A stretch of 32,000 bases of DNA. It comes from Acaryochloris marina MBIC11017. Its GTDB lineage: Bacteria; Cyanobacteriota; Cyanobacteriia; Thermosynechococcales; Thermosynechococcaceae. Made by a program: the position numbers and the translations under genes. The stretch is from assembly GCF_000018105.1 (NCBI RefSeq), contig NC_009926.1:1-32000 (forward strand), given 5' to 3'. Shown piece by piece: positions 5,419-25,456 of the stretch. Position 1 is the first letter of the stretch, and every line of letters starts with the position of its first letter. The notes beneath the pieces were generated by a model. The model was given only the letters and a program-made list of their open reading frames with translations, searched no databases and was not told the origin of the DNA.

Positions 5419-5482
5419 GATGTTGAGTCCTCTGAAATCACTTGAAACGAAACAGGGGCAGGGTGCCCCTGTGGTGGACGGT

Positions 5483-5776
5483 CTAAAACTCGTCTTCGTA
5501 CTGAGATTCAGCCCGAAGTTGCCGGGGTGAGGGGATAGTTTCCCAGTCTGCAAGTCGGGCAGACACGCCGAATTGCTTCAAGACCCAATCTCGGAGCCGA
5601 TCACCAACTGAACCAACACGGTTCTTGATGATGATGTAATACTCTTCCAAGGCTCCCCCTTCCCGGACACCAGGCCAAAACTCGACCTGGGCGTACAGCA
5701 AGGAATATTCAGGGTGAAGTGGATCGGTAACTCGTTCGTCGATCCACTGCTCCATTTGCGTTAGAGTAGTGTTCAT
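5483..5776 (-). CDS. hypothetical protein
   Basis: 97-aa ORF directly upstream of, and on the same strand as, the DUF3768-like gene. No motif recognised. Confidence 0.45.
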   Translation of the reverse strand: MNTTLTQMEQWIDERVTDPLHPEYSLLYAQVEFWPGVREGGALEEYYIIIKNRVGSVGDRLRDWVLKQFGVSARLADWETIPSPRQLRAESQYEDEF

Positions 5777-5807
5777 CTGTATTACCTCTGGTAATTGGTT
5801 TACAGAA

Positions 5808-5846
5808 AGAGCCGCTGGTGTTCCTGCTAAGAAAAGCAGCGGCTCT
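5808..5846. other. 10-bp perfect-stem hairpin in the divergent intergenic region
   Basis: AGAGCCGCTG (5808-5817), 19-nt loop, CAGCGGCTCT (5837-5846). It lies about 30 nt upstream of the minus-strand start at 5776. Confidence 0.4.
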
Positions 5847-6026
5847 GTTTAATGGACTGTCTTTGAAATCGTTTCAGTTTTAAGCCTTGATGGGCATCGG
5901 GCTATCCCCGGTGGCTGCGGTATTAGCAGTTTGACCAGCACTCAGCAGAACTCACTTATTTAGTTAGCTTGCAACCCTGGATTTTTGTTTACTGGAGAGG
6001 CCGTTTGCTTTCCTCATCCATGTATT

Positions 6027-8566: not shown

Positions 8567-8738
8567 ATGTCAACCCCATAGGCGATGTCGCGACAACCAC
8601 AAGGCGGATCAACCCCCAAATTTGAACCGTATTATTTGGCGTACACTCCCTTTGCGTTAGCTCTTTTTCAGACCTCATACGATACCTTCAGAACAAAACG
8701 ACAACCCGTGATCGAAATGACAACCAGTGATCGCTCGA

Positions 8739-9581
8739 TTATTTGGACTGGGATTTTTGAGGTGGAGACTGAGTTTGAGCCGTTCTCTGAGTCGCTGATT
8801 TGCGCCGATAACTATCGGCTTGAATTTCGATAATCAAGCCATGATGAATTAAGCGATCAATGGCAGCCACCGCCATCATCGAATCAGTGAAAATGTCATC
8901 CCATTGGCTGAAGGGTTGATTCGCTGTAATCAACAAACTTTTTCGTTCATAGCGATGCGCAATTAATTCAAACAGAACGGACGTTTCCGCTTCCGACTTT
9001 TTGCAATAGCCCAAGTCATCCAAGATCAACAGATCATAGCGGTCCAGTTTTTTGAGCATTGGATGCAGCTGCAGTTGGAGCTTCGCCTGTTGCAGTTGCT
9101 GGACCAATGCGTTGGCTGCAAAGAACTTCACCCGCTTACCGAATTCCAGCATCTTTTTGGACACCCCAGTGGCCAGATGTGTTTTTCCAACACCCGAGGG
9201 CCCCAGAATAAGGCAATTCTCGGCGCGCTCCAACCAACCCGGATCTGCGGCTAATTGCATCAAGGGAGCTGGATTGAGCTGGGGACAATGGCTAAAGTCA
9301 AAGTTGGTAAAACTTTTTGCGTTTGGGAGCCTGGCTTCGGTGAGGGCACGTTTTAGACGAGCTTGTTCTCTTCGTTGGGCCTCCGTTTCGCACAAGGCTA
9401 GTAAGAATTCCGCATAAGACCAGTTTTCCTGCATGGCTTGGGATTCGATAGATTCCCAATGGGTCAACATGTGGGAGAGCCTGAGCTTTTTTAAATAGAG
9501 GCTCAGGTGCTGGTAGGGGCTCAGCGGGGACTGAGCAGGAGGGGAGGAGTTTGTCATAAAGTTCAAGTGAATGTTGTTCAA
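8739..9581 (-). CDS. istB: IS21-family helper ATPase IstB
   Basis: Walker A LILGPSGVGKTHLA, Walker B LLILDDLGY, and a typical IstB N-terminus (..WSYAEFLLALCETEAQRREQARLKRALTEARLP..KSFTNFDF). The true start may be the ATG at 9557. Confidence 0.9.
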   Translation of the reverse strand: MNNIHLNFMTNSSPPAQSPLSPYQHLSLYLKKLRLSHMLTHWESIESQAMQENWSYAEFLLALCETEAQRREQARLKRALTEARLPNAKSFTNFDFSHCPQLNPAPLMQLAADPGWLERAENCLILGPSGVGKTHLATGVSKKMLEFGKRVKFFAANALVQQLQQAKLQLQLHPMLKKLDRYDLLILDDLGYCKKSEAETSVLFELIAHRYERKSLLITANQPFSQWDDIFTDSMMAVAAIDRLIHHGLIIEIQADSYRRKSATQRTAQTQSPPQKSQSK

Positions 9582-11034
9582 TGCTGAGGTCAGGAACCTG
9601 CTTCATCTGAGGCGGCTCAAACTGTTTTTTCAGGCGATTGAGGGTAAGGCTGGATGAGCGAAGCTGCTGCTGTAAGTACACTGCTACGGCCTGTTCTTTA
9701 TCTTGAACCGCAGCAATATACAGGGCTTCCACGATGATCTTGGCAGCCTGCTCCAGGTCAAATTGGGCTTTGAGCTGTTCCCAGATTTGGCGGTATTCAG
9801 GATTGGGAAGTAGGTCTGATTGCCAGGTGCAATAGATAAAAGCACGAGGCTTCAATCGCATTGAACCAATAACATGGCGATAGTTGATGCAACGGTCGCG
9901 ACGTTTGCCTTTGCCACTGACGCGCTTCCTCGGCAATTCCACCACCGGGTGTCGCTCCAGATAGCCGACAATCCGGTCATGGTATAGATGCAGTTCCAAT
10001 TGACGACCAATCAGTCGAGAAGGGACGGTGTATAGAATGCAGCGAACATCGATGGTGCTGCGTTTGCTGACTTTAGCCGTGAGCACTTCATAGTCAGGGG
10101 TTCGATATTTGGGCAGTGGTTGTAGATGGTCTTTCTCTTGCTCATACTTGGTTTGGCACTGCTGATTCAACTTGGCAACCTGTGCATCAATTAAGGCTTG
10201 ATACTCAGCAACGCTCGTAAAATCTGCACTGCCGCGCAGATAGATCGCCTGCTTAATTCGGTTCTTCAGATGACCATGGGGAGATTCAATGGAGCCATTC
10301 TCATGGGCTACACCTTTGTTGTTACGAGTGGGTTCTAGCCGATAGTGGTCACACAGTTCGTCGTACAGACGAGTGAGGTTTTTGGACCGGCGGCCGCCCA
10401 TGTTGCGATAGGCTGCACTCAAACTATCAGTACGATGCTGTGTAGGAACACCTCCACAGGCTGCAAAGGCATTTTGCAATCCTTCTGAGAGGGCGACAAA
10501 GCTTTCGCCTCCTTCGATGATCTGGGCATATCGCCAGCCGCTGTATCCCAGACGGTAATGGTATATCAGGTGCTCAAAGGGTTTGCCGGCAATGGTAATC
10601 GTGATGCCCTTGAGTTCTGTAAAGTCGGAAAACCCTTGTACCCCGGGTTCATGACGCAATTCAAACATCACTTCAGGGCTTGGTCCATGTAAGGCTTTCC
10701 ACGTTCTCACCCGACGTTGTAGGGTCCGCAGGACTTGGGGATACTGGCCTGGATACTTATCCTGCAGGTACTCATACAGGGTCATGGGTTTGAGGCGTGG
10801 GTCTCGACGCAGCATTGGTTCTAGCTCGTCTTCCCACACATCAGCTAAGGGGTCGGGAACGGTGCGTTGGTCCTGAAGGCGGCCGCGATTAGGTTGATGG
10901 GTGCCGGCCTCAATTCGTTGTCCGGTTCTTGTAGATATTTCGGCAATGTAAGCTGCTTCAGCTTGTTTCAAGCCGAGGTCTCTTCCGTTCATATAAACAC
11001 GAGTATGATAGGAATCAATTCTTTTGTTAGGCAC
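9298..11034 (-). CDS. istA: IS21-family transposase IstA (DDE)
   Basis: N-terminal HTH region and a DDE core (..FSDFTE.., ..HRTDSLSAAY.., ..NNKGVAHENGSIESPHGHLK..). The ORF runs about 284 nt into istB in another frame. The last ~90 codons look off-frame, so the functional stop is probably expected near 9560. Confidence 0.85.
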   Translation of the reverse strand: MPNKRIDSYHTRVYMNGRDLGLKQAEAAYIAEISTRTGQRIEAGTHQPNRGRLQDQRTVPDPLADVWEDELEPMLRRDPRLKPMTLYEYLQDKYPGQYPQVLRTLQRRVRTWKALHGPSPEVMFELRHEPGVQGFSDFTELKGITITIAGKPFEHLIYHYRLGYSGWRYAQIIEGGESFVALSEGLQNAFAACGGVPTQHRTDSLSAAYRNMGGRRSKNLTRLYDELCDHYRLEPTRNNKGVAHENGSIESPHGHLKNRIKQAIYLRGSADFTSVAEYQALIDAQVAKLNQQCQTKYEQEKDHLQPLPKYRTPDYEVLTAKVSKRSTIDVRCILYTVPSRLIGRQLELHLYHDRIVGYLERHPVVELPRKRVSGKGKRRDRCINYRHVIGSMRLKPRAFIYCTWQSDLLPNPEYRQIWEQLKAQFDLEQAAKIIVEALYIAAVQDKEQAVAVYLQQQLRSSSLTLNRLKKQFEPPQMKQVPDLSIEQHSLELYDKLLPSCSVPAEPLPAPEPLFKKAQALPHVDPLGIYRIPSHAGKLVLCGILTSLVRNGGPTKRTSSSKTCPHRSQAPKRKKFYQL

Positions 11035-11237
11035 TTGTACAGCCCTCTATTGATTAGGGATGTAAAAAGTGTCTTTTTTCTTGAGATTGAATTCTAGAAA
11101 CGCGATCTCACACATCATTTCTAGGGAATTGAGATCTAGTTTTATCCTTCTCAGGGGATGCCTGGTTTCTTCATAGCTATAGCCGACGTGACATCGTCAT
11201 TAATCCGTCAGCTCGATTGTCGTCTAATAGGCAATGG

Positions 11238-13125
11238 TTGGTCCGACTTGGAAGCAAGACACGGTGGACTTAATCGGGTCAAGAATCGGCTTCAACGATC
11301 TGCCAAAAGGGATGCCTACGTTGTTCCCGCGAACTGTAGCCGCATTGGAGTCTTGAATGCCTTACGGGACAAGAATATCCCTGGTGCTGATACCGCCAAT
11401 CTTATCTGTGGCACCTGCATTGCCAGAGAAGCCTGTATCAATGCAGATGGGCCAGGGTATGGGTTCTTGAATCAGCGGCGCAATGTCCTAGGTGCCCCAC
11501 TGTTGAGGGCACATCCTGACTCACTGCCCGACCCAGAGGATTACCCACTGGAAAACACGATGCTGATCTGGGATGAACCCGGTCAGAACTTCCAGGTCAA
11601 GCAGTCCGTGACTGTTACCTTTAGCGACTTGCAGCAAACCATCACAACCCTGATTATCTATCCAGAAATCTTTGCCCTAGTGCAACCGTTGCTCTCAGCC
11701 CTCCTCCCCTTGATGGATGGGTCTATAAAGCTAGGGAAATATGGCTTAAATCATCTAGCCCTCAAAAGCCGTTTGCCCGATATGGCAGGAGTGAAACTCG
11801 GAGAAATCGCCCTAATCCTGATGCCCAACCTGGGATTCCTCAATACCTCTTCCGACTATGGGATTGACCTTGCAGACTTACCCAAGCAACTCAGAAAGAA
11901 GTTCTCTGAACGGGACTCGGAGATGGCAGAGCAGGCCAGGAATGGGGTGGTTAAACAGTGGCTCATTCCCCTGATCCGAATCCTGCAAGGAGGAGCAGGA
12001 TGTATCCAAGTCAGTCGCTATGGCCTCCTGACCCTTAATACCCCCAATCCTCGACATCGAGACTTAGCCCAAGCTGCTCAAGCCAATGTATTTCTCGATG
12101 CCACCCTCTCCCGTGAAGACTTAGCACTCAAGCTGGGTTGCTCTCCTGATGAAATCTTAGTAGTTCGTCAAGCCGTCCCAGACACCGGAAATCTGGAGGT
12201 GATTCAGGTGGCCGACATGGGGCGCGTGGGCATGAGTCGAGGTGGGGATCAGACCAAGCGCATTGATGCACTAGTCCAGCATTACCAAGATTTGGATGCA
12301 GTGAATACTAGGACTATCGATTTTAAGCAGTTTGAAAAGGATGGGGCCTGGTGGCGTGATAGCCGAGGGGTGAATGATTTCCTCACCGTTCAGACCCTAG
12401 TACTGGTAGGCACTCCCTGTCGTAACCTCAATGACTTAGCTGCTGAGTTTGCCATCACGAGCGGATACTACCCAGAGGAAGAAGATCCAGCGTTCAAAGC
12501 TTTCGTGGACCGATCGATACTAGCTGAGATTCACCAAGCGATTGGACGACTCAGAGCACATCGACGCCCTGGAGAATCCCTGCAAGTGGTGTTGATTTCC
12601 AATATCGATATGGACATTCCGGTGCAGCAGATCCAAGCCAAGGATCTGACGATTGAAGCCGCCCACAAAACGGAGCGGGTAAGACTTGCGATTGAATCAG
12701 CCATCCTCCAGCTCCAAGCCAAAGGCGAGAAGGTCACTCAGCAGATCGTCTCAGCGATGACCAAAATCCCCAGAGGGACGATTGCGCGATACTGGCGTCT
12801 GTTCATTTCGCTTTTAGATAGTTTTAATAGCAAAGTGAACAATTCCAAGAATGTGTCAGAGGCAGACCAAGACTGCCATCAAGCGATTGCGGGTGTTCTA
12901 GATGAGCTGGCGGATCTGCCTATAGATGACCTACTACCCAGCCTCAATGAAGTGTTCTTTGACTGGCTCAAACCCAGAGAATGGGCCAACGTCTGGGACA
13001 AGGTGAGCATATCGTGCCAGATGGCGATTCTAGAGGGGGTGGCGATGATGTTACCAGTGAAGCTGCTGGAGGAAACGTTGCCAGAAAAACCCAATCAAAC
13101 AGTTCAGTTGAGCCAACATGTCTAA
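11238..13125 (+). pseudogene. plasmid replication primase-helicase (CyRepA1-like), 3' part
   Basis: Continues ..WSDLEARHGGL.., with a Walker B-like MLIWDEPGQ, helicase C-terminal motifs (TLVLVGTPCRN.., HQAIGRLRAHRR) and a C-terminal helical domain. The track ORF start at 11158 lies inside the IS end. Confidence 0.75.
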
Positions 13126-13367
13126 AAAAAGCTTGTTAAAGATCAAAAGAGATCTTGCATACGTTGTAGAACTCTTTGCTTATAATTCTCTAGTGTTGCG
13201 AAAGGGTCAGATTAAGAGAATGTAGAGAACATATACTAACTTACAAAAACTTGCGATGATAACCTGTCCATAATCATAAGCAGTATTACCACTAGTTTAC
13301 TTAATTAGTGATAGAAACACTCAAGCTTTGTTTTTCAACTCAGTGTATAAACTGTATTAACCTAAAT

Positions 13368-14546
13368 ATGTTCAGAAATAAACCAGTGAAACCATCTGTG
13401 CTTGATATCTTCTGTGGAGCAGGTGGTATGAGCCTTGGTTTTCAGAAAGCTGGCTGCAAGATACTGGGTGGAATAGATAACAACCCACATGCTGTAAAAA
13501 CTCACCATCAGAATTTCCCTAAATGCAAGTTGAAACTTGATGCTACTGACATTCGTGACATAGAAAATCTTGAAGATCTTGGTATAGATCCTAAAGAAGT
13601 AGACATTCTAATTGGTGGACCACCATGTCAAGTCTTTTCCAGAGTTGGCATTGGAAAAATGAAAAATCATTTAAAGCGAAATATTGAACAAGATCCAAGA
13701 AATTTTTTATACAAGGAATATATCCGATTTCTTCGTTATTATAAGCCTCTATTTTTTATAATAGAAAACGTTGATAATCTTGCAAATAAAAAAGATATAT
13801 TAGAAACAATTATAAAAGAATTAGAAGCTTGTGGATATCGAGTTGAATACAACGTTTTAGATGCATCAGATTTTGGAGTTCCTCAGCGAAGACTTAGGAT
13901 TTTTATCATCGGGTCACGCCTAGATCTAGGATGGAAACCAATTTTTCCAAAATCAAAAACTAAAATACCACTTACTGTCGGGGAAGCCATCAGTGACTTA
14001 CTTGAACTTCAACCTACTGCTATGCCTTTAAAACTCAAATCTAGTGGGCCTAAACAGAAAGATTGTGAACTACCATATCGTAGTGCGCCTGAATCAGGGT
14101 ATCAACGTATCATGCGACGATATAACGGTGATCTTGTAAGAAACCATATATGCCGTGCTCATAACTATGAAGATCTAAAAATATTTGACATGCTGAAACA
14201 AGGACAAAAATATGGTGATTTACCTCAGGAGGTAATGCGTTATCGGGTCGATATTTTTAAGGATAAGTACAAACGTCTTATCTGGGATGATCTATCTTGG
14301 ACACTAACTGCTCATATGCGTAAAGATTGCTTAGCCTACATTCACCCTACTCAAATACGAAGTATTTCAGTCAGAGAGGCTGGTAGGATTCAGAGTTTTC
14401 CTGATAACTTTATATTCTATGCGCCAATGACAAGAATGTTTGAGCTTGTGGGCAACTCAGTCCCCCCTCTTCTGGCTGAGTCTGTAGCGAAACCTATAGT
14501 AAAAAAGATTCGTGAATATTATAATGTACTAAGCTTAAAAGAATAA
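13368..14546 (+). CDS. DNA (cytosine-5)-methyltransferase
   Basis: Motif I DIFCGAGGMSLGF, motif IV GGPPCQVFS, motif VI FIIENV, motif VIII QRRLRIFIIG, motif IX-like RSISVREAGRIQSFPD, motif X GNSVPPLL. ATG at 13368; the track ORF begins at an upstream GTG. Confidence 0.93.
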   Translation: MFRNKPVKPSVLDIFCGAGGMSLGFQKAGCKILGGIDNNPHAVKTHHQNFPKCKLKLDATDIRDIENLEDLGIDPKEVDILIGGPPCQVFSRVGIGKMKNHLKRNIEQDPRNFLYKEYIRFLRYYKPLFFIIENVDNLANKKDILETIIKELEACGYRVEYNVLDASDFGVPQRRLRIFIIGSRLDLGWKPIFPKSKTKIPLTVGEAISDLLELQPTAMPLKLKSSGPKQKDCELPYRSAPESGYQRIMRRYNGDLVRNHICRAHNYEDLKIFDMLKQGQKYGDLPQEVMRYRVDIFKDKYKRLIWDDLSWTLTAHMRKDCLAYIHPTQIRSISVREAGRIQSFPDNFIFYAPMTRMFELVGNSVPPLLAESVAKPIVKKIREYYNVLSLKE

Positions 14547-14709: not shown

Positions 14710-16881
14710 ATGTCTCATAGTTCTATATCATCAGTTTCAACCTCTTTGCCACTACGTCCTAGGGCTCGATTACTGAGAACAATCGGAGATGAGTTAATTA
14801 GTAGCGAAATAGTTGCTGTAATTGAATTAGTAAAAAATGCTTATGATGCCGACGCTACTATTGTTTTAGTTAAATTTATTGAACCTCTTGAGACTGGTAA
14901 AGGATCAATTGAAATTATCGACAATGGTAATGGTATGTCACTCAAGATCATTGAAAAATCTTGGATGGAACCAGCAACTTTTTCAAAGAAAAATACTAAA
15001 TTTAGTAAGATTTATCGTCGTCGATTTTTAGGAGAAAAAGGTGTTGGGAGATTTGCAACATCAAAATTATCTGACTTTTTAGAAATCGTTACGAGGTATA
15101 TAGAGTCAGATAATGAAATACGAGCAATTTTTGATTGGAAGCAATTTGATGATGAAGAAAAATATTTAGATCAAGTAGAAGTTTTATGGGATATGACTAG
15201 CCCTGATGAAATTTGTTCTGAGGGTTCAATTATGATGTTGTATGACTCATGTGAGATTAGAGGTTCGGATGGAATCACGCATGGAACTATTCTACGAATG
15301 TCAGATCTTAGAGCTAATTGGGACAGGGACCAGCTTCTACTTCTTCGAACTGCCTTATCCCGATTAATTTCTCCATTCAGTGATGCGAAAGACTTTCAAG
15401 TCATTTTAGATCTGCCAAAACAATATGAAAATCTTTCTGGTAAAGTAGAGACTCCTAGAGTATTTGAAAAGCCTCCATACCGTATTAATGGAAAGGTAGA
15501 TTCTGAAGGAAATGCCAATCTTATTCTGAATGTTATGGGTAAAGATCCCCAACATATTTCAGAAGTTTTAGGGAAGGATAAAAATATACCTCAATGTGGA
15601 CCATTTGAGGTGGATATTCGAGTGTGGGACTTAGACAGAGATTCATTAAAACTATTAGTAAAAGATCAACAATCTACATTAAAAGATATTCGTAAAGATA
15701 TCAAGGACATAGCAGGAATTAACATTTACAGAGATCAATTTCGTGTGCTTCCATATGGAGAGAGAGACAATGACTGGTTGAGATTGGACATAAGGAGAGT
15801 ACAGGCTCCAACACTTCGCTTATCGAATAATCAGATCGTCGGGTACATACTCATTTCTTCTGACCTAAATCCCGAATTAAGAGATCAAAGTAACCGGGAG
15901 GGGATCGTAGAAAGCCAAGCATTAAGAGATTTACGATTCTTAGTAAGAACTATCCTAGCTAAACTTGAGGCTGAAAGATATAATACTCGTCGACAACAAG
16001 AGCAAGAAACTCCCATTTCTAGCCAAGGAAGCCTCTTTGGAAATTTTAATCTTGATCCGCTTCGGACAGCTCTAACCGAAAAATATGGTAAAGAGAAAGA
16101 TCTCATAGGCATAATTGATAGCCAGGAAAAACAGCTTGAAGAGAGAGTAAAAGTCGTAAAAGAGGTGTTATCTAGATATCAACGCCTTGCTTCACTTGGA
16201 CAATTAATAGATACTATTCTTCACGATGGTCGAGCTCCATTATATAAGATTGATAATGAAGCTACATTACTAATTAAAAATATTGAGAAATCTGATAATA
16301 ATAATTCATTATTTGATAAATTAAAAAAACGAGGCGAATCGATAAAAAAATATTCTTCACTATTAGGAAATCTTTTCAAAAAAATTGAACCTTTTGGAGG
16401 ACGCAAGCGAGGTCGTCCTAAAAAAATAATTCTTGAAGAAGTTATTTCAGATGCATTCATGCTGTTAGAAAGCGATCTAAACAAAGCAAACATTAAAATT
16501 CATATTCCAACAACTAAAACTACAGTTTTTGTCGAGTCTTCTGAGTTACAGCAGGTGATTATGAATCTTGTTGATAACAGTATATATTGGCTTAATAGTG
16601 TTGACGAAGATAAGAGATATATTAATGTATCTATTTCAAATAAGGAAAATCCTTCTGATGGAATTGATATTATATACTCTGATTCTGGTCCAGGTATAGA
16701 AGAAAAATTTAGAGAACATATTTTTGATCCATATTTTTCTACTAAACCTGATGGTGTCGGCCTTGGATTAGCAATTGCTGGGGAGATTTTAACAGAGTTT
16801 TACGAAGGAAGTTTAGAGCTGATAGAGAATACTTCTTCTTCTGGAGTTACATTCCGTATTCATCTAAATAAGAGAGTTTAG
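14710..16881 (+). CDS. dual-GHKL protein: N-terminal MORC/MutL-like ATPase module fused to a HisKA + HATPase_c histidine kinase core
   Basis: N-terminal Bergerat motifs: VIELVKNAYDADA (N-box), IEIIDNGNGM (G1), GEKGVGRFA (G2). C-terminal kinase motifs: H-box LIDTILHDGRAPL (His505, codon 16222-16224), N-box VIMNLVDNSIYW, G1 YSDSGPGI, F-box FDPYFSTK, G2 GVGLGLAIA. No transmembrane segment or classical sensor domain is visible. Confidence 0.8.
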   Translation: MSHSSISSVSTSLPLRPRARLLRTIGDELISSEIVAVIELVKNAYDADATIVLVKFIEPLETGKGSIEIIDNGNGMSLKIIEKSWMEPATFSKKNTKFSKIYRRRFLGEKGVGRFATSKLSDFLEIVTRYIESDNEIRAIFDWKQFDDEEKYLDQVEVLWDMTSPDEICSEGSIMMLYDSCEIRGSDGITHGTILRMSDLRANWDRDQLLLLRTALSRLISPFSDAKDFQVILDLPKQYENLSGKVETPRVFEKPPYRINGKVDSEGNANLILNVMGKDPQHISEVLGKDKNIPQCGPFEVDIRVWDLDRDSLKLLVKDQQSTLKDIRKDIKDIAGINIYRDQFRVLPYGERDNDWLRLDIRRVQAPTLRLSNNQIVGYILISSDLNPELRDQSNREGIVESQALRDLRFLVRTILAKLEAERYNTRRQQEQETPISSQGSLFGNFNLDPLRTALTEKYGKEKDLIGIIDSQEKQLEERVKVVKEVLSRYQRLASLGQLIDTILHDGRAPLYKIDNEATLLIKNIEKSDNNNSLFDKLKKRGESIKKYSSLLGNLFKKIEPFGGRKRGRPKKIILEEVISDAFMLLESDLNKANIKIHIPTTKTTVFVESSELQQVIMNLVDNSIYWLNSVDEDKRYINVSISNKENPSDGIDIIYSDSGPGIEEKFREHIFDPYFSTKPDGVGLGLAIAGEILTEFYEGSLELIENTSSSGVTFRIHLNKRV

Positions 16882-16882
16882 T

Positions 16883-18049
16883 ATGTTTGAAATTACTACT
16901 TGGAGACTACTTATTGTTGATGATGATGAGGAAATATGTAAACAAGTTAAAGAAATATTAGAGGACGAAGAAATTAACAATGTTAGACTTTCTATTATAA
17001 TTACAACCGATTTTAATGATGCACTTGAAATCTTAGAGAATCAACGGATTGATCTCATCATCCTTGATGTTCGCGAAGGTTCACATGATGATAATCCTTC
17101 AGAAGAAATTGGAATAATTACATTAAACAAGATAAAAGAGAAGTGTTTTTTACCTATAATCTTTAATACCGGATTACCAAATCTAGTTGAACACTTAAGA
17201 TCTAACCTTATTCGTATTGTTCGAAAAGGAAAATCTGAAGAGTTATGGAATGAAATCAACAATGTATTTACAAGTAACCTACCAATTATTAATCGAGCAT
17301 TAGTACATCATTTCGAAGAGATACAGCGTCAATATATGTGGGAATTCATAGCTGATAATTGGCAAAGTATTTCTAGAGATAATGATAATCATGAATTAGC
17401 ACATTTATTAGCTCGAAGAATTTCTTTATCTTTATCAGCCGAAGAAATTTTAAGTTGGGTTTCACAACTAGGATTTACAAGTAAGGATTCAATTAAAAAA
17501 GAAGAGGTATCTCAAAGCCACCCTATTACTTATTACTTAATACCTCCTATTTCGAATTATCCACGACCTGGTGATTTATACGTTAAAGATAAAGAGGATA
17601 ATCCTACATATTGGGTTATTCTTAATCCATCTTGTGACTTTATTATTCGCAAGAATGGCAAGTGTAAAGTGGAGTATATCTTACTTGCTAACGCAAGTAA
17701 ATTGTCTGATCAAGAAGAGTATAAAAGCTGGTGTTTAAATTATTCAAACAGTCAAAAGAAAAAATTGATTAAACTAATTCAGGATAATAGAGAAGGTCAG
17801 TCAGAGCGTTTTTATTTTTTACCTGGTGTATGTGATTTTCCCGATTTAATTGTCGATTTCCAAGTTGTTGTTAGTATTAAGTATGATGATTTATCCAATG
17901 GAGCTTATAATCGGCTTGCTTCACTCGATAGTCCTCATGCTGAAGCCTTACTTACTAGATTCTCTCGGTACTTTGGCAGAGTAGGAAAACCTGACTTAGA
18001 TGCCGAAAGTATTCTATCTAAACTGCAGGAGGTTATCAGCAAGGATTAA
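16883..18049 (+). CDS. response-regulator receiver (REC) domain protein with an unknown ~260-aa C-terminal output domain
   Basis: REC signatures: LLIVDDDEE acidic pocket, DLIILD (Asp62, codon 17066-17068), IIFNTG, VRKGK. The start codon lies 1 nt after the kinase stop (TAG-t-ATG). The C-terminal domain (..PGDLYVKD..WVILNPSCDF..RFYFLPG..LIVDFQ..ASLDSPHAEALLTRFSRYFGRVGKPDL) matches nothing I can name. Confidence 0.8.
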   Translation: MFEITTWRLLIVDDDEEICKQVKEILEDEEINNVRLSIIITTDFNDALEILENQRIDLIILDVREGSHDDNPSEEIGIITLNKIKEKCFLPIIFNTGLPNLVEHLRSNLIRIVRKGKSEELWNEINNVFTSNLPIINRALVHHFEEIQRQYMWEFIADNWQSISRDNDNHELAHLLARRISLSLSAEEILSWVSQLGFTSKDSIKKEEVSQSHPITYYLIPPISNYPRPGDLYVKDKEDNPTYWVILNPSCDFIIRKNGKCKVEYILLANASKLSDQEEYKSWCLNYSNSQKKKLIKLIQDNREGQSERFYFLPGVCDFPDLIVDFQVVVSIKYDDLSNGAYNRLASLDSPHAEALLTRFSRYFGRVGKPDLDAESILSKLQEVISKD

Positions 18050-18083
18050 GTATTTTTATTATCCTAAACACGCTAATCCAAAA

Positions 18084-18107
18084 CCTTGCACATTAGTGCA
18101 AGGCTTT
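18084..18107 (+). terminator. hairpin terminator after the REC-effector gene
   Basis: CCTTGCAC-atta-GTGCAAGG, an 8-bp perfect stem, followed by CTTT, 35 nt after the stop at 18049. The U tract is weak. Confidence 0.5.
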
Positions 18108-18180
18108 AGCTGCTACACACCTCTAAAAATAGAGATTTATAATACTAACAGCTAGAGGTTTTCATATCAAATCAGATCGA

Positions 18181-18301
18181 TAAGTTGACGACGCAGCTCT
18201 AGATTGGGACTTTCAGTCCCTTCTTTAACCTCTGGACTTTCAGTCCAGAGTGGTTAAGTTTAAAATTTTTTTCATCCATCATATTCTAAGCAGTCAACTT
18301 A
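18181..18301. repeat. twin palindromes GGACTTTCAGTCC bracketed by a 9-bp inverted repeat
   Basis: GGACTTTCAGTCC occurs at 18207-18219 and 18234-18246, centre-to-centre 27 bp. Each extends to a 5-6 bp stem hairpin. TAAGTTGAC at 18181-18189 and GTCAACTTA at 18293-18301 flank them. Confidence 0.6.
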
Positions 18302-19429: not shown

Positions 19430-22400
19430 TTAGTACAAGAAATTTGCAGGATTTAGTCTTTGACCAGAAGGGTCTCGGATCTCAAAATGTAAATGTGGTC
19501 CTGTTGTTCTACCGCTGTTACCAGAGAGGGCAATCACTTGGCCTTGCTTAACAGGATCACCTATTTGCACATTTGTAGCTGATAAATGCCCATAAACCGT
19601 AACATAACCGCTACTGTGCTGAATAAACACAAAATTGCCGTACCCTCCGCCACATCTAGACTCCAAGTGACCCTGCTGAGGACAATCTACTTTAACAGCA
19701 GTGACGACACCTCCATCTGATGCCCTAATTTCAGATCCTATCGGTGTACCGTAATCAATACCTCTGTGGAATCCTAATGATCGCGGACCATAGGGCGAAG
19801 TTATAGGATACTCAGTTGGTAAGTCAAACTGTCCAGTGGTTATCCCATCTCCCTGAACAAACGGCCCTAATTGACCATTAAGGTTACTCGCGATCGCACC
19901 AGGCGAACCCGGCACCCCAGCCACCTGTGAAGGCTTACAGGGCACCCCAGCCGAAGCCACCGTAGCAGGCGCATTGGTCGAAGCATCTCCAGTTGACCCA
20001 TACTTCTCAAAATTGGCTGGATTACTCCACACCTCACTTTCTTCAGGTCCACCGGGCAGCGAGGTCCATTGCCAAGGACTCAGCACCCTGTCTGCCAGGG
20101 CAAAGTTCCCTCGCTGAATCGCACCGATTAGATCAACATTCTTCTCAGCCCCAATGATTTTGATCCACTCCACCGCTGCTTGAGCCGCAACCGCCCGATC
20201 CCGTGTCCAGCCATCCAGCCCCGTTCGTTGCAGAAGGGACTGCCTAGACTCTGGTGTAAATTGATAAATTCCATAAGCACCTGTCTTAGGATTGGGCCTC
20301 CAATTCGTCCCATCCGTGCTTTCTCCAATTCTGATTCGGGCTAGATATTGCCTCAGATTATGGTCAGGATCGGCGGGGGCTGAATGGGTTGATGAGCCCT
20401 GACTTTGGCTATTGCTAGCGCTATTATTAAAGGTTGCCGCTGCTTGATCCGTACCCACATACCGCCAATGCCACGGCTCATAGCTCACCCCTTGGCTATT
20501 CCCCTTAGGAAACGACAGCTCAAACCCATACTTCCCCGCATTCTGCTGCATCCAGGCATATTCAGGAGTGTTAGCCCAAGATTCATTCAGGTAGGGATTC
20601 GCATTATTTCCTACATCCACGGCTAACCCCGTATGGTGCTCACTGTGGCCTGCGGGTGCTGATATCTTCGCTGCTGCTTCTGGAGAACCTTGCTCAGCGA
20701 CCTGGTCCGAGAACAACTCTTCTTGCAGCTTTCTATCCCGAAAGCCTGATACCGCCTTGATATCCAATCCTTGAGCCGCTGCATCAGCCCGCATTTGCTC
20801 AAAGGCTGACGCTGCATCTTGAGTCAGGCCAACTGTAGCCCCATCCACCGCAGTCACTTCATAAAGCTGTTCATCGGTTTCCTCATAGGGAAGATGCCCA
20901 TACTTAGTATTTGCGGCTCCCGCATCACTCTGGCCCGCTGTCGCAATAATCTGGTCGGGGTCGCAGTACACCCCAGCAGCCAAAGTTTGATTTCTCAAAC
21001 GTGCAAGACTAGCAGGCAAGTTCCGCCGACTCGCGACGAGGAACAGCCCATCTTCTTTGACAACATACGGTGTTGGAATCACCAGAAAGTGAGGTGTACA
21101 TTGCTGGCCGAGCAAGGGAATCATGACGCAGAACTGAAAGGCGACACTGAGCTTAGCCGTACTCTTTTGGTCGGGATACTCCGTGATTTTCTTGAGGACA
21201 AACTTGGTATGGCTATTCACCCCAAACGGATGAATCCCCGCAGGTTCCCAGCCTCCATTCACCCACTTCAGCAGTCCTTTTCCTCCTTTAACCCCTTGGC
21301 CATTCTTGCCCCCTGAGTCTCCTTGCACCCATTGTTTCCCTTCGATATCGTCATCCCCCGTCGCTTGGGCTACTGGAGAGCTGATAAACTTCCGCATCTC
21401 AAAATGGGGGCAGTTATCCGCTCTTTGGTTTTGGGTCTGGCCGAGGGTGCATTTGATGGGTCTAAACTTTTGGTTTTCACTGCCACCGGATAGCGAATGT
21501 TGGATGGAAGGCTCCTCTGGCCCCTCAACTCCGCTATAGGCAATATCAAACCTCGCGAATAAGTCCCCCGCAAAAAAGCTAAAGGCTAGGTCAAAAGGGA
21601 GCTTATCAATCGGAATCTCTGAGAGGCCAGGAACAGAGTTGATGGTCTTGTCCTTCGCTCCAGGTATCTCTTCAATCGCCATGTCCGCAATCTTAGGTAG
21701 GGTCTGCTCAATGGGCTGATTGACCAGATCGGGGACGGCACCCAAGGGCAAATTCTTTAGTTCAGGCACGGCCTTGATCACTTCCTTGACAGCAACATCT
21801 GTTCCTTTTGCCAAGATATAAGCTTGTGCCCGTTTCCTCACCTGTTGCCAGTTACCATTTATCGCATCACCGACGAGAGGGACAACCTGATTAACGGGCA
21901 GTTTCTTGAGGGTGGGGCCAATCTTCTTACCAATCCCCGCTAGCTGAATCTGCTCAGCCTTGGAGATGACCCCCTGCCAATTACCCCGTGCTAGGTCTTG
22001 AAGCGGAATCCCTTTAAAAGCGGGTATCTTGCTGAGTCTAGTAATCAGCACTTTCTCTCCTGTAGTCAGGGCGGCTTGCTGGAGCTGTTTACCTGCTTGA
22101 GAAGGGTCATACAATACCCCTAAAGCTGCTTGGATGGCCGGGGCGGCATCATCAACGGTGATTTTCTCGCCATTGTTGATCTTGGTGTAGAGTTTATCGA
22201 TTTCATCAACCGTCAGGCCATAAACGAGGGGCACATCGCCAATGGGTAATCCTGCAATATCCGTCCCCTGTTTAGCTGAAATATCTCGTAAGGTCAGTTT
22301 GGTGAAGGATGCCGTGACGGGATTTTGCTGTAAGTCTCCAAACTTGAGGATTTGATCAGGAGTCGCCCCTTGAGGCCATGCCCGATCTACTTGGTAAGGA

Positions 22401-22636
22401 AGCTGCACTCCATTGGGTAAGGGTGGGATTTCGACATAGCCAGCTTGCTCAGCCGTCGTTAGTTGTCGAAACGTAGGGGACGGTCCAGGATCGGGATCAT
22501 AGTAAAGTCCCGGTAAGTTGACGGGGGTATCTGGGCTAAGTGCTGCCGTCTGTTGCTGCTGTTGAGCTAGAGCAGGGGCTATCTGCGTCAAAGTCGGTAG
22601 ACCAGCCAGGGCCATAGCTATGAGTTTCTTTTTCAT
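19430..22636 (-). CDS. large secreted multi-domain peptidoglycan hydrolase (M15/VanY-like + lysozyme/transglycosylase-like + M23)
   Basis: Signal peptide MKKKLIAMALAGLPTLTQIAPALAQ (ATG 22636). VanY/M15 motifs: SGFRD..SEHHTGLAVDV..YEPWHWRY. Lysozyme-like motif: IGESTDG...GAYGIYQFT. M23 motifs: HRGIDYG...GPHLHFEI. The N-terminal ~600 aa are unassigned. Confidence 0.85.
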   Translation of the reverse strand: MKKKLIAMALAGLPTLTQIAPALAQQQQQTAALSPDTPVNLPGLYYDPDPGPSPTFRQLTTAEQAGYVEIPPLPNGVQLPYQVDRAWPQGATPDQILKFGDLQQNPVTASFTKLTLRDISAKQGTDIAGLPIGDVPLVYGLTVDEIDKLYTKINNGEKITVDDAAPAIQAALGVLYDPSQAGKQLQQAALTTGEKVLITRLSKIPAFKGIPLQDLARGNWQGVISKAEQIQLAGIGKKIGPTLKKLPVNQVVPLVGDAINGNWQQVRKRAQAYILAKGTDVAVKEVIKAVPELKNLPLGAVPDLVNQPIEQTLPKIADMAIEEIPGAKDKTINSVPGLSEIPIDKLPFDLAFSFFAGDLFARFDIAYSGVEGPEEPSIQHSLSGGSENQKFRPIKCTLGQTQNQRADNCPHFEMRKFISSPVAQATGDDDIEGKQWVQGDSGGKNGQGVKGGKGLLKWVNGGWEPAGIHPFGVNSHTKFVLKKITEYPDQKSTAKLSVAFQFCVMIPLLGQQCTPHFLVIPTPYVVKEDGLFLVASRRNLPASLARLRNQTLAAGVYCDPDQIIATAGQSDAGAANTKYGHLPYEETDEQLYEVTAVDGATVGLTQDAASAFEQMRADAAAQGLDIKAVSGFRDRKLQEELFSDQVAEQGSPEAAAKISAPAGHSEHHTGLAVDVGNNANPYLNESWANTPEYAWMQQNAGKYGFELSFPKGNSQGVSYEPWHWRYVGTDQAAATFNNSASNSQSQGSSTHSAPADPDHNLRQYLARIRIGESTDGTNWRPNPKTGAYGIYQFTPESRQSLLQRTGLDGWTRDRAVAAQAAVEWIKIIGAEKNVDLIGAIQRGNFALADRVLSPWQWTSLPGGPEESEVWSNPANFEKYGSTGDASTNAPATVASAGVPCKPSQVAGVPGSPGAIASNLNGQLGPFVQGDGITTGQFDLPTEYPITSPYGPRSLGFHRGIDYGTPIGSEIRASDGGVVTAVKVDCPQQGHLESRCGGGYGNFVFIQHSSGYVTVYGHLSATNVQIGDPVKQGQVIALSGNSGRTTGPHLHFEIRDPSGQRLNPANFLY

Positions 22637-22676
22637 GGGGAAATGCTGTGGTGCGATAAAGGAATGTACCGCCAGC

Positions 22677-22714
22677 AAAAACGGCCCCGATCTGAGCTAT
22701 TAACTGAAGTGTTC
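22677..22714 (+). repeat. 38-bp direct repeat, copy A (left of NACHT gene)
   Basis: AAAAACGGCCCCGATCTGAGCTATTAACTGAAGTGTTC matches copy B at 25430-25467 at 33 of 38 positions. Confidence 0.7.
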
Positions 22715-22918: not shown

Positions 22919-25456
22919 GTGATTTCTTGGCTAAACAACTGGCATACAACGCCTTGGCTCTGGTTGCTTGCAAACACCACAGCAAAAGGAAAAGATGACT
23001 CAAGAATCAAGCAGATCCTAGATTTTCTCAACAACATTCCGATGATCGGCTGGGGAATTGCTGGGTTCGCGTTGGTGGCAATGGCAACAGCAGCGATCGC
23101 TAAGTGGACAGGCAACCTTGAAAAAATCATCGTATTTTCTCAAAAATATCTCTTTCGCAAAACACCAGAGATTATCGAAGCAAAAAGACAAAAAGCCCGA
23201 CAAAAGCTGATTAAAGTTTTACTTGGGCAAGTTGTTAAACGCTTGGAAAACTCTTTACATCACAAAATCCCTATTGATTTGAGGCATGAGGAGCAACCAC
23301 AACGGGTTGGACAACGGAATTTACCAACTGTTCAAGACGAAGAAGTCTCTGAGAATTTCATCAATCGAACATTCAATCCCTTCACGGAAAACGCTCTACA
23401 CGAGGCTGAAAGCACCCAGAAATCTACTCAAAAACTCTTAGAACGGGAGGACATTCAGGGACGTTTATTGATTTTGGGAGAACCGGGGTCTGGAAAGACA
23501 AATGAACTGTTAGTTCTAGCTAGGGACTTACTGATAAAAGCACAGCAATCTCCAGATAAACCAATCCCAGTAATCTTTGAGCTATCTGAATGGAATGACA
23601 ACCAGGAGCTTGATGAATGGCTTGCTCAGCAATTATTTGAAAAGCACAAAATCCCATTAGATGTTTCTAAACACTGGATGAGACAAAAACAGCTGCTTCC
23701 TCTATTGGATGGCCTGGACGAGCTTAGCAAAATAGAAGGGAGTGAAGAAGTTTCATCAAAAGAACTTGACCAAGGTCAAATCAAAGAACTGATTCAATGT
23801 GTAAGGGAAATCAATACCTTTATTAGTATTTTCTCTTTACCTCTTGTTGTGTGTTGTCGGCGCAAAGAATATGAAGCACTCGAAGCACAAGGTGAATCTC
23901 TCAAGTGTTTGAACGGAGCTATAGATTTACAACCTCTCAGTGATAAGCAGATTAAAGAATATCTTCAGAAATTAAAGCGGGAATCTTTATGGGAAGTACT
24001 TCAAAGCCAGCCTGAACTTCCGGAATTTATCCGTTCACCATTGTTTCTACTTATTTTGGCGGTTGTATATAAAGGGGAACACATTAGCAGTGAAGAAGAA
24101 TTGCTTGACGAATACATAACTAAACAACTAAATTCGGCCAGCAAAAAGGCTTACCAAAAAAGAATTCGTTCCAAGTTGCGGCCGAGTAAATTCTATATAA
24201 AAAAACTTGGTAAAGAACCTGCTCCAGAGAAAACTCATTATTACCTGAGCTGGTTAGCAAGCAAACTGGATTTTGAAGGAAAAACTGAGTTCCTAATCGA
24301 ACAAATTCAACCTACATTGTTAGATACTGCAAAGGCTCGAAAACATTATCGTTGGATTTCTGGGCTGATGTATGGAGTGATTATAAGTTTGTGTTTTGGG
24401 TTGATAGGAGGGTGGTGGATCGGTCTAGTATTCGGTTTAATTGGGGGACTAAGTATTGTACTGAGTGAAAATAAAAAGCCAAAGAAGTATAGATTCTCAT
24501 GGAAAGGATTCTGGGAAGCAGGACTGATTTATGGGTTAATTATTGGGTTTCTTAAAGATCTTAATCTTGGTTTGTGTTTTGGACTGAGTGGAGGACTGAG
24601 TAGAGGACTGAGTAGAGGACTAGGTGACAGCCAAAAACCTGAAAAGCTGAGATTATTCTGGAAAAGCTTTTGGAGGGCAGGAGTAATTTTTGGACTAATT
24701 TTTGGACTCAGTGGAAGTCTGCGTAGAGGACTTGCTGGAGGGATTATTGGAGGGCTTAGTGAAGGGCTTATAGAAGGACTGAGTAGAGGACTGAGTAACA
24801 TCAAAACATCAGAAAAGTTCAGCTTTTCATGGAAAAGTTTTTGGAGAGTAGGGTTTAGTATTGGACTGACTATTGCGATTATTGGAGGGCTTAGTGAGGG
24901 GCTTACAGAAGGACTGAGTAGAGGCGTCTTGATTGCATTAACTGGAGGGTCAAGTATTGGGTTTATCGCTGGGCTGATTGAAGGAATAGAAAATTCTGAT
25001 ATTGATGTTCAGGATAAAACAACTCCTAATCAAGGAATTAAAACTTCTATCAGAAATGGGATAATTGTTGCAATAGTATTTGGACTGTGTGCTGGGCTAA
25101 TTGGTGGACTGAGTGAAGGACTAGTTTTCGTGTTGGCTAGTGGGTCGAGTAGGGGGATATTTGTTAGGATGGCTGTTGGGTTGAATGTCGGACTGATTGC
25201 TGGACTGATTGCTGGACTGATTGCTGGGATAGACGCAGTCTTTAAACACTTTTTCTTGCGTATAGTCCTCTACCAATCTGGAGTTGCCCCCTGGAACTAC
25301 GCAAGATTCCTCGAACATGCCGAAAACCATCGATTCATCCAGCGAGTAGGTGGCCGCTACCGCTTTGTCCATGACCTGCTAAGAAAAAGGTTCACGGCAA
25401 CTTTGAATGAGGAGAAAAATAAAGAAAAAAAAAACGGCCCAGATCGGAGCCGTTAA
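22919..25456 (+). CDS. NACHT-family P-loop NTPase with a C-terminal glycine-zipper transmembrane repeat region
   Basis: Walker A LILGEPGSGKTNEL, Walker B LLPLLDGLDEL, and a short N-terminal TM helix (MIGWGIAGFALVAMATAAIA). The C-terminal ~330 aa are repeats of basic-W-motif plus GL-rich helices. The track start is GTG 22919; an alternative ATG is at 23042. Confidence 0.8.
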   Translation: MISWLNNWHTTPWLWLLANTTAKGKDDSRIKQILDFLNNIPMIGWGIAGFALVAMATAAIAKWTGNLEKIIVFSQKYLFRKTPEIIEAKRQKARQKLIKVLLGQVVKRLENSLHHKIPIDLRHEEQPQRVGQRNLPTVQDEEVSENFINRTFNPFTENALHEAESTQKSTQKLLEREDIQGRLLILGEPGSGKTNELLVLARDLLIKAQQSPDKPIPVIFELSEWNDNQELDEWLAQQLFEKHKIPLDVSKHWMRQKQLLPLLDGLDELSKIEGSEEVSSKELDQGQIKELIQCVREINTFISIFSLPLVVCCRRKEYEALEAQGESLKCLNGAIDLQPLSDKQIKEYLQKLKRESLWEVLQSQPELPEFIRSPLFLLILAVVYKGEHISSEEELLDEYITKQLNSASKKAYQKRIRSKLRPSKFYIKKLGKEPAPEKTHYYLSWLASKLDFEGKTEFLIEQIQPTLLDTAKARKHYRWISGLMYGVIISLCFGLIGGWWIGLVFGLIGGLSIVLSENKKPKKYRFSWKGFWEAGLIYGLIIGFLKDLNLGLCFGLSGGLSRGLSRGLGDSQKPEKLRLFWKSFWRAGVIFGLIFGLSGSLRRGLAGGIIGGLSEGLIEGLSRGLSNIKTSEKFSFSWKSFWRVGFSIGLTIAIIGGLSEGLTEGLSRGVLIALTGGSSIGFIAGLIEGIENSDIDVQDKTTPNQGIKTSIRNGIIVAIVFGLCAGLIGGLSEGLVFVLASGSSRGIFVRMAVGLNVGLIAGLIAGLIAGIDAVFKHFFLRIVLYQSGVAPWNYARFLEHAENHRFIQRVGGRYRFVHDLLRKRFTATLNEEKNKEKKNGPDRSR
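24340..25240 (+). repeat. intragenic tandem repeats (~165-170 bp units, plus 15-bp and 12-bp micro-repeats)
   Basis: Unit starts lie near 24470 (KKYRFSWKGFWEAG), 24631 (EKLRLFWKSFWRAG) and 24800 (EKFSFSWKSFWRVG). GGACTGATTGCT occurs 3 times at ~25190-25230 and GGACTGAGTAGA 2 times at ~24591-24614. Confidence 0.8.
25425..25454 (-). terminator. strong intrinsic terminator for the minus-strand T4SS operon, embedded in the NACHT 3' end
   Basis: Minus strand reads AACGGC-uccgaucugg-GCCGUU followed by ten U (A-run at 25425-25434). It lies 36 nt downstream of the small ORF stop at 25490. Confidence 0.6.

Follow-up and report, generated by a model that had tools for sequence, protein, structure and literature searches.

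What does a response regulator do when the part that follows its receiver was assigned to no known output family? The question is posed by a gene of the cyanobacterium Acaryochloris marina MBIC11017, at positions 16883–18049 of the first 32,000 nucleotides (nt) of contig NC_009926.1; this whole stretch is called the window in what follows, and all coordinates refer to it. An initial annotation, made from the nucleotide sequence, had described a receiver, a helical linker and a beta-rich C-terminal part of unrecognised family, and had proposed that, in a defence context, the latter would act as a toxic or abortive effector. We find that the C-terminal domain very probably has a MazF/PemK-like fold, as judged from predicted models. 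We favour reading it as an effector gated by phosphorylation, and probably a nuclease, within a two-component module for defence or addiction that is linked to a methyltransferase; taken whole, this reading falls just short of probable. Its parts differ in strength: that the three-gene island containing the regulator is a defence or addiction module is likely, that this domain is the effector is a view towards which we lean, and that it is an RNA-directed nuclease is a tentative suggestion drawn from the modelled fold. The regulator is composed as follows (aa, amino acid residues).

16883..18049, plus strand: response regulator with a novel C-terminal domain, 388 aa (open reading frame call, identity match)
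16898..17272, plus strand: receiver (REC) domain, aa 6–130 (PF00072 and Foldseek)
17279..17467, plus strand: conserved helical region, aa 133–195, NRALxxHxExVQRxYMWxFV ... LAYLLARRLAxSLS (AlphaFold model and conservation)
17510..17926, plus strand: beta-barrel core, aa 210–348, predicted MazF/PemK-like, with a two-helix insertion at aa 278–299 (model and Foldseek)
17627..17638, plus strand: PSCD motif, aa 249–252, a PxCD motif invariant superfamily-wide (both branches, hhalign)
17927..18046, plus strand: C-terminal helices, aa 349–388, containing the most conserved block, SPxAEALLxRFSRYFGRxGxPDLD (column identity 0.68–0.76)

The product of this open reading frame (ORF) is 100% identical to an annotated A. 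marina ‘response regulator’. PF00072 matches its N-terminal part with a score exceeding the gathering cut-off (E 9.2e-08), and a Foldseek search with the full-length model returned receivers such as AdeR and RR468 at target template-modelling (TM) scores of 0.75–0.85. The pocket residues D13/D14, D57, D62, T96 and K115 are conserved across 84 homologues as well as 68 genome loci, which bears out the initial annotation on the receiver and on D62 (nt 17066–17068) as its phospho-acceptor. The domain of unrecognised family had been marked from nt 17260, which is codon 126. The helical linker and the beta-rich part behind it are also seen in the AlphaFold model, whose layout is REC at 6–130, helices at 133–195, a strand-rich core at 231–348 and further helices at 352–364 and 374–387 (full-length predicted local distance difference test, pLDDT, 87; predicted TM score, pTM, 0.74). 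The helical region comprises helices at aa 133–166, 169–183 and 186–195, and Q148, Y151, M152, W153 and R179 are conserved within it.

Foldseek with the full-length model returned receiver domains only, and aa 196–388 were therefore re-modelled alone (pLDDT 89, pTM 0.79). With this domain-only model, all of the best 50 matches in the PDB were toxins of the MazF/Kid/MoxT/PemK type (E 6e-4 to 1.5e-2, target TM 0.6–0.7, about 10% identity), and the best matches in BFVD, a viral library, were ‘endoribonuclease’ and PemK-like proteins. The SH3-like barrel with C-terminal helix of MazF, PemK, Kid and the ToxN-type toxins is thus also the arrangement predicted for the window domain. On a topological reading, the order of strands is alike as well: strand 1 opens with GD(I/L), a hydrophobic strand 2 ends in (S/T)P, and strand 3 is followed by an insertion, strands 4–6 and the C-terminal helix. 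The window domain differs from MazF in being twice the size, in its two-helix insertion and additional C-terminal helix, in its fusion to REC where MazF has an antitoxin gene as partner, and in having a signature of its own, PxCD plus RFSxYxxRxGxPDxD.

That signature emerges from comparison within the family. The initial annotation had quoted five conserved-looking blocks, PGDLYV (aa 229–234), WVILNPSCDF (aa 244–253), RFYFLPG (aa 309–315), LIVDFQ (aa 322–327) and ASLDSPHAEALLTRFSRYFGRVGKPDL (aa 346–372). All five are present and conserved in the 84 homologues, among which P249, C251, D252, R309, L313, P314, D325, D349, P351 and G368 are invariant and conservation reaches at least 90% at G230, D231, Q327, E354, R362, Y363, R366 and D371; the 68 genome loci show the same pattern. 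Part of this conservation is confined to one branch of the superfamily, the part that includes R309, D325, Q327 and D349. A distant branch in Enterobacterales, Campylobacter and Bacillus is linked to the window's branch by profile–profile alignment of the beta-rich cores (hhalign probability 99.8%, E 1.6e-27), a match from which the helical region at aa 133–195 is absent, that region being specific to the window's branch. Here the PxCD motif reappears as invariant P227, C229 and D230, aligned to P249, C251 and D252, and RFSxYxxRxGxPDxD (aa 359–373, nt 17957–18001) is kept in both branches. Together with [FW]LP and SPxF, these two motifs are the only invariant polar features common to both.

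In sequence searches, none of Pfam, NCBIfam, PADLOC, PHROGs and the PDB structure sequences yielded a match to aa 126–388. The statement that the domain is not a helix-turn-helix (HTH), GGDEF, CheB or other recognised output family accordingly holds in these libraries, and the search for a DNA-binding or other ordinary regulatory match to the C-terminal part, proposed as a way to overturn the effector idea, gave none by sequence. A PD-(D/E)xK-like nuclease built on D252 and D325-x-Q327 was considered and rejected: the predicted barrel is MazF-like, and D325 and Q327 are lost in the sister branch.

The same query segment collected 124 clusters, which come from cyanobacteria, Chloroflexota, Actinomycetota, Verrucomicrobiota, Planctomycetota, Bacillota, Bacteroidota and methanogenic archaea and, with few exceptions, share the layout and measure 370–410 aa. 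At E<=1e-3 a domain profile matched 2068 proteins among 1.84 billion representatives, 299 of them at E<=1e-30. The best 150 of the 2068 were fragments or REC fusions, nearly all of them close to 380 aa long and with the domain spanning about aa 128–380; fusion to other sensor modules, for which the initial annotation had suggested looking, did not occur among these 150, and rare cases could sit in the remaining representatives. Phage-encoded copies of the domain were sought and none was found. Translated searches of plasmids recovered the distant branch at 26–33% identity in records from Campylobacter (conjugative), Bacillus, Enterobacter, Hymenobacter and Fusobacterium, and close relatives of the Enterobacter regulator (1292 matches) were found in Klebsiella, Serratia, Aeromonas, Neisseria and Pasteurellaceae. 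Among the Campylobacter plasmids, 41 records matched, and conjugative plasmids of about 50 kb carry the distant pair of kinase and regulator; on C. jejuni plasmid p15597A-2 (L080, 4956–9409) this pair has a convergent dcm gene and adjoins vapD, a recombinase and a HicAB toxin–antitoxin pair.

Three short or REC-less copies (P0102, P0118 and L074) lie in mobile-element contexts, two of them with a transposase or integrase as immediate neighbour; all three have the look of remnants disrupted by an insertion sequence (IS) or integrase. They may be compatible with a domain that is inert when receiver-driven activation is lost, and may equally be unexpressed remnants. In L074 the shortened copy (8046–8779, starting MVLTPSCD...) adjoins an integrase gene, and the ORF that comes after this copy contains an HNH-like motif (..LLQAAHIVED..).

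What would switch such a domain on is indicated by the gene directly upstream, whose stop codon is followed after 1 nt by the start codon of the regulator.

14710..16881, plus strand: soluble sensor kinase, 723 aa, with an N-terminal GHKL/paraMORC-like ATPase and a C-terminal histidine kinase (Pfam, NCBIfam)
14779..15414, plus strand: GHKL ATPase domain, aa 24–235 (Pfam, NCBIfam; Bergerat-fold Asn N43 invariant)
15700..15924, plus strand: middle module, aa 331–405, IYRDxFRVxPYG...DWLxL...NQxVG...DQSNREG (conservation, phrog_8137)
16129..16872, plus strand: histidine-kinase core, DHp and CA, aa 474–721 (NCBIfam AtoS-/ZraS-type matches at aa 474–720)

Among 78 related loci, all 64 whose sequence extends far enough have a homologue of this kinase immediately before the regulator, and the two proteins are almost certainly a cognate two-component pair. 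Pfam finds HATPase_c_3 at aa 35–152 and HATPase_c at aa 611–721. In the N-terminal ATPase N43, D46 and K110 are invariant across 64 loci, and aa 22–234 match the BbrUII/HgiDII restriction-enzyme family (1.3e-14), as the same N-terminus matches the REase_II models of PADLOC. In the histidine kinase the H-box reads LHDGRAPL, with phospho-accepting H505 at nt 16222–16224; H505 and the glycines of the G-box are invariant in 65 sequences. Column identity peaks between these two halves, at 0.65–0.87 in the middle module, which by analogy with other GHKL architectures is probably a transducer or S5-like domain. The N-terminus of phrog_8137, an uncharacterised phage family of 572 positions, matches kinase aa 339–433 (E 8.6e-31), so that the middle module occurs in phages too, outside the kinase context.

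The pair is joined by one further gene, read in the same direction:

13308..14546, plus strand: C5 cytosine DNA methyltransferase (Dcm-type), 412 aa, first gene of the island (TIGR00675 1.2e-63, phrog_116 1.7e-80)

These three co-directional genes, methyltransferase, kinase and regulator, form an island with a guanine–cytosine (GC) content of 0.32–0.36 over about 13.1–18.1 kb, compared with about 0.5 in the flanks. Between 13100 and 18100 there is no HNH or XRE ORF, and the window island likewise has no Vsr or glycosylase gene and no second receiver gene. To see what accompanies the pair elsewhere, a census by Pfam was made of 148 neighbouring ORFs from 52 loci, taking two upstream and one downstream of each kinase–regulator pair. 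The main classes were:

C5 DNA methylase: 41 ORFs
Vsr: 7 ORFs
DUF559 (Vsr-like): 3 ORFs
MTES_1575 (Vsr-like): 3 ORFs
HhH-GPD glycosylase: 7 ORFs
Mrr_cat: 2 ORFs
DUF4420: 2 ORFs

Enzymes of T:G mismatch repair (Vsr, DUF559, MTES_1575 and HhH-GPD) thus account for 20 of the 148 ORFs. A recurrent separate nuclease gene was not found among them, other nucleases being sporadic. The census indicates a conserved core of methylase, kinase and regulator to which T:G mismatch repair enzymes are optional additions. In some loci an HhH-GPD (MutY/Mig-like) glycosylase gene encoding about 240 aa lies between the C5 methylase and the kinase; such loci are L017 (about 5100–5900), L004, L008, L011, L014, L016, L019, L064, L066 and L077. 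Elsewhere a Vsr-type gene follows the regulator, and Vsr and HhH-GPD are alternative repair enzymes for 5-methylcytosine deamination in the same module. In L048, L050, L051, L053, L059 and L073, loci of actinobacterial and Dehalococcoidia origin, the methylase lies within an ORF of 630–655 aa upstream of the kinase, which suggests that some 200 aa form an additional domain fused to the C5 methylase.

Signs of a mobile context are the low GC content of the island, the IS21 and NACHT genes near it, and the distant homologues on plasmids of Campylobacter (next to dcm) and Bacillus. The IS21-type pair, on the minus strand just upstream of the island region, consists of IstB (8739–9581; PF01695 5e-65) and a 578-aa transposase-like ORF (9298–11034) that carries a Mu-transposase C-terminal domain, and it fits a setting that is mobile and plasmid-like. 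Around the island, neither flanking repeats nor signals of promoters or terminators rose above chance. When the window was compared with the plasmid collection the only match was a 146-bp repeat at 18053–18199, right after the stop codon of the regulator, 94.5% identical to an unannotated site on A. marina plasmid NZ_AP026077.1; it may be a short repeated element at the right edge of the island.

Whether the three genes evolve as a unit was assessed with normalised BLAST scores over 1431 locus pairs, a measure that is approximate, as L056 and L047 may contribute a methylase that is not adjacent. Kinase and regulator scores correlate strongly with each other (Spearman 0.85), which shows close co-evolution of the two, and weakly with those of the methylase (0.25–0.28). 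Loci L003 and L017 give an example, with normalised scores of 0.76 for the kinase, 0.69 for the regulator and 0.14 for the adjacent methylase. Close pairs differ diffusely, the regulator varying most at aa 241–300, and neither kinase nor regulator contains an indel-rich hypervariable segment of the target-recognition kind, gap fractions being near zero throughout. By these comparisons the methylase appears to be freely exchanged relative to the kinase–regulator pair. The weak coupling and the lack of a hypervariable segment together argue against a restriction (‘R’) component that reads the sequence recognised by the methylase.

Four kinds of known system resemble the window module in part. 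The closest by its kinase is Ambrosia, which protects Pseudomonas from phages (bioRxiv 10.1101/2025.09.30.679545). It consists of the XRE regulator AbrR, the N6 methylase AbrA, the ‘HATPase’ kinase AbrB, the receiver protein AbrC and the HNH nuclease AbrD; defence needs every gene, AbrB N40 and AbrC D60 included, methylation by AbrA gives phage no protection, and in reporter assays infection induces transcription of the methyltransferase and HNH regions (bioRxiv 10.1101/2025.09.30.679545). The first 400 aa of AbrB align with the window kinase at 31% identity (E 1e-49), N40 falling on N43. Both systems thus combine a DNA methyltransferase, a soluble GHKL-histidine kinase and a receiver-domain regulator. 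They differ in that Ambrosia has five genes, with an N6-adenine methylase, XRE and HNH, whereas the window has three, with a C5 methylase and neither XRE nor HNH, and in that AbrC (209 aa) has no similarity to the window regulator and no beta-barrel domain. By analogy, the effector slot that a separate HNH protein occupies in Ambrosia would be left in the window to the fused domain, and we infer on this ground that the domain fills it.

The gene neighbourhood itself has been described for Response_reg_2 (PF19192)/HEF_HK (PF19191) pairs, which adjoin C5 methylases and Vsr and were connected with paraMORC ATPases; the study did not characterise the C-terminal part of its regulator-like proteins (Bellieny-Rabelo et al. 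2021, PMC8011034). As in the window, a C5 methylase lies upstream, the kinase is soluble with HATPase_c_3, DHp and HATPase_c, and a receiver-like protein, in which no further known domain is recognised, is adjacent; Vsr is often downstream. The HEF_HK kinases are longer, about 990 aa with the H-box near residue 776–842, compared with 723 aa and H505 in the window. PF19191 and PF19192 match neither the window proteins nor the 84 homologues nor 16 sister-branch proteins, which match canonical PF00072 instead. Membership of these families was accordingly rejected, for want of a profile match and given the greater length of the published kinases, and on the profile evidence we regard the window module as a separate, though related, branch of this theme.

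A precedent for a defensive phosphorelay that ends in a REC-fused enzymatic effector is Detocs (DtcABC; bioRxiv 10.1101/2023.01.24.525353). What it shares with the window is the concept, a His-Asp phosphorelay and a regulator with an effector in place of a DNA-binding domain, the effector role in the window being our interpretation. The PADLOC models for Detocs components have no match in the window. Detocs is said to use another sensor kinase, an additional buffering receiver protein and, as effector, a PNP-type ATP nucleosidase, and to lack a methyltransferase.

The paraMORC/GHKL restriction–modification (R-M) proteins, of BbrUII/HgiDII type or GHKL-Shedu (PMC2292703, PMC12137116), resemble the window kinase in their HATPase_c_3-type N-terminal ATPase and likewise occur on mobile islands, in linkage with cytosine methylases and Vsr. 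In them the ATPase is fused to or placed beside a recognisable nuclease (RE-fold, HNH or DUF4263), whereas in the window it is fused to a histidine kinase that would signal to the regulator, a separate protein with REC and the putative effector domain. With classical type II R-M systems the window shares the adjacent methyltransferase; the recognised nuclease-fold subunit of such systems was not detected in the window.

How, then, would the module work if the C-terminal domain is its phosphorylation-gated effector? The GHKL half of the kinase would sense an intracellular nucleic-acid or infection cue, H505 would be autophosphorylated, and the phosphoryl group would pass to D62 of the regulator. 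Phosphorylation of D62 might then unite two barrels, most likely by receiver dimerisation, or free the barrels from the helical region, and the paired or released barrel domains would constitute the active effector. MazF-type toxins work as dimers whose substrate groove spans the interface, and receivers commonly dimerise once phosphorylated, so that activation is explained most economically by phospho-dimerisation. The activity would most plausibly be metal-independent endonucleolytic cleavage, by analogy with MazF, Kid and the ToxN-type toxins; RNA would be the favoured substrate, and growth arrest or abortive infection would result. The invariant set is mostly non-acidic (C251, D252, the S, R and Y of RFSRY, R366 and D371), which suits metal-independent chemistry better than a two-metal DNase, and fold and invariant residues together give a weak tilt towards RNA cleavage and growth arrest.

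We would go further only speculatively: it is a doubtful though attractive notion that the module represents a distinct immunity class, in which a methylation-linked, MutL/MORC-like ATPase sensor feeds a His-Asp phosphorelay and this in turn a fused toxin-fold nuclease with a new Cys-Asp active site. A check of self against non-self, of the kind made by R-M systems, would then end in abortive arrest, for example by RNA cleavage, and not in cutting of invader DNA, and the receiver would serve as a phospho-switchable antitoxin.

The idea of a toxic or abortive effector, with which the initial annotation closed, therefore gains from the best fold matches of the domain-only model, which were to toxins only, from the AbrB-like kinase, from the mobile, methyltransferase-linked context and from the lack of a recurrent nuclease gene; it is held back by a link to MazF that stays at the level of the fold and by the catalytic Arg and Thr, which have no evident counterparts. 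Several observations weigh against the effector reading. The Foldseek E-values are modest (6e-4 to 1e-2), with root-mean-square deviations of 4–6 Å. An hhalign comparison with a five-member MazF/Kid/ChpBK alignment gave a probability of 0.2%, PF02452 did not match at E<=1 in Pfam, and hmmsearch of the PDB gave no MazF chain; in view of the hhalign result we claim similarity of fold to MazF only, and neither homology nor membership of its family. The position of the MazF catalytic Arg is variable here (consensus G or T before YW), and that of the catalytic Thr is not clearly conserved, as S275 may or may not correspond; both statements come from topological mapping, not from a residue-level superposition. 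An antitoxin-like partner gene is lacking, with no small gene up- or downstream and with kinase and methylase as the partners. In the Enterobacterales branch R309, D325, Q327 and D349 are replaced, which leaves either a small catalytic set, PxCD and the C-terminal helix, or a domain that is no enzyme. Finally, the HNH gene beyond the regulator remnant of L074 indicates that members of this regulator family can occur alongside a separate nuclease, as in Ambrosia.

The last two points lead to the rival that we take most seriously, although we judge it improbable: a non-catalytic protein- or DNA-binding module through which the phosphorylated regulator governs the expression or activity of the methyltransferase or of unlinked restriction genes, or exerts feedback on the GHKL kinase. 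Roles of this kind were proposed for their own regulators by the authors of the Response_reg_2/HEF_HK study (PMC8011034) and of the Ambrosia preprint, and the infection-induced transcription of the methyltransferase and HNH regions in Ambrosia fits them, as does the L074 arrangement. SH3-like barrels are, by textbook knowledge, often binding modules, and few polar residues are invariant superfamily-wide. Those that are, in PxCD with its strict Cys-Asp pair and in RFSxYxxRxGxPDxD, nevertheless resemble an active site; sequence searches revealed no HTH or other DNA-binding family, the full-length model matched receivers only, and the 52 loci offer no recurrent gene but the methylase for such a regulator to switch. 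The Ambrosia regulator, moreover, is without this domain and is not homologous outside REC. A nuclease directed at DNA has a smaller chance still. It would be the ‘R’ subunit of a type II-like R-M system, in which the GHKL-kinase reads unmethylated sites, phosphorylation licenses the endonuclease and the C5 methylase protects the host. The tight linkage to C5 methylases and to Vsr or glycosylase genes is that of R-M systems based on 5-methylcytosine, the kinase N-terminus matches the BbrUII/HgiDII family and REase_II of PADLOC, and the island has no other nuclease gene. Yet the domain bears no PD-(D/E)xK, HNH, GIY-YIG or PLD signature, its two superfamily-invariant acidic residues (D252 and D371) are a poor fit to a metal-dependent DNase, and the known members of the matched fold are all RNases or gyrase poisons, as far as the PDB matches and general knowledge go. 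The free exchange of the methylase (Spearman 0.25–0.28), the lack of an indel-rich hypervariable region in kinase or regulator and the failure of methylation to protect phage in Ambrosia speak against it as well.

Two further alternatives depart from nuclease and defence in different directions. One is a circuit of a housekeeping or epigenetic kind: the GHKL kinase, which is MutL-like, would together with its regulator keep watch on the deamination of 5-methylcytosine or on very-short-patch repair and adjust methylation or repair to match. In its favour are the Vsr-type or HhH-GPD enzymes in 20 of 52 neighbourhoods and the fact that MutL, itself a GHKL protein, stimulates Vsr in Escherichia coli (textbook knowledge, discussed in PMC2292703). 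We regard it as having little chance: the window island has neither Vsr nor glycosylase, the distribution is patchy and mobile (low-GC island, plasmids, IS-disrupted remnants), and a homologous kinase serves phage defence in Ambrosia. Least probable by far is a CcdB-like poison that, released by phosphorylation, blocks DNA gyrase or another GHKL-partnered enzyme and has no nuclease activity. CcdB and MazF/Kid share a fold, as textbooks record, and the Foldseek matches do not go beyond the level of the fold; however, there was no CcdB chain among the best 50 PDB matches, the C-terminal residues with which CcdB contacts gyrase have no identifiable counterpart, and the strictly invariant Cys-Asp pair is foreign to CcdB.

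Some of what the phosphorylation-gated effector reading draws on is already known: the gene-neighbourhood theme is published, a relative of the kinase has been tied to phage defence by experiment, and receiver-fused toxic effectors occur in Detocs. In the literature and libraries searched, three things appear to be new, namely the domain itself (its size, its distribution and its PxCD/RFSxYxxRxGxPDxD signature), its predicted MazF-like fold, and its position as the sole candidate effector of a minimal three-gene module; the literature searched contained no paper on a receiver-fused MazF-like domain or on this domain. Should the effector reading be right, more than 2000 cluster representatives from bacteria and methanogenic archaea, Campylobacter conjugative plasmids and many Enterobacterales among them, would gain a fold and a testable role. 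The domain would supply the missing effector of a widespread methyltransferase/GHKL-kinase/regulator trio, hitherto described only as a two-component system near R-M genes. It would also provide the second phosphorelay-gated toxic enzyme in prokaryotic defence, Detocs being the first, and a toxin-fold module that can be switched via a single Asp. The free exchange of the methylase relative to the kinase–regulator pair would in that case suggest that such modules do not act as classical restriction enzymes.

Other ORFs of the window lie outside the three-gene island. To its left, at 11158–13125 (plus strand), a 655-aa ORF has no match in Pfam, NCBIfam or PHROGs; its GC content is about 0.5, and it is therefore probably not part of the island. 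To the right, at 19430–22678 (minus strand), is a secreted-looking protein of 1082 aa with VanY D-Ala-D-Ala carboxypeptidase and M23 peptidase domains, unrelated to the regulator domain. Beyond it, at 22919–25456 (plus strand) in a stretch of lower GC content (about 0.40), lies an 845-aa ORF with a NACHT NTPase domain (PF05729 3e-09, aa 183–354), which may be an NLR/Avs-like defence gene.

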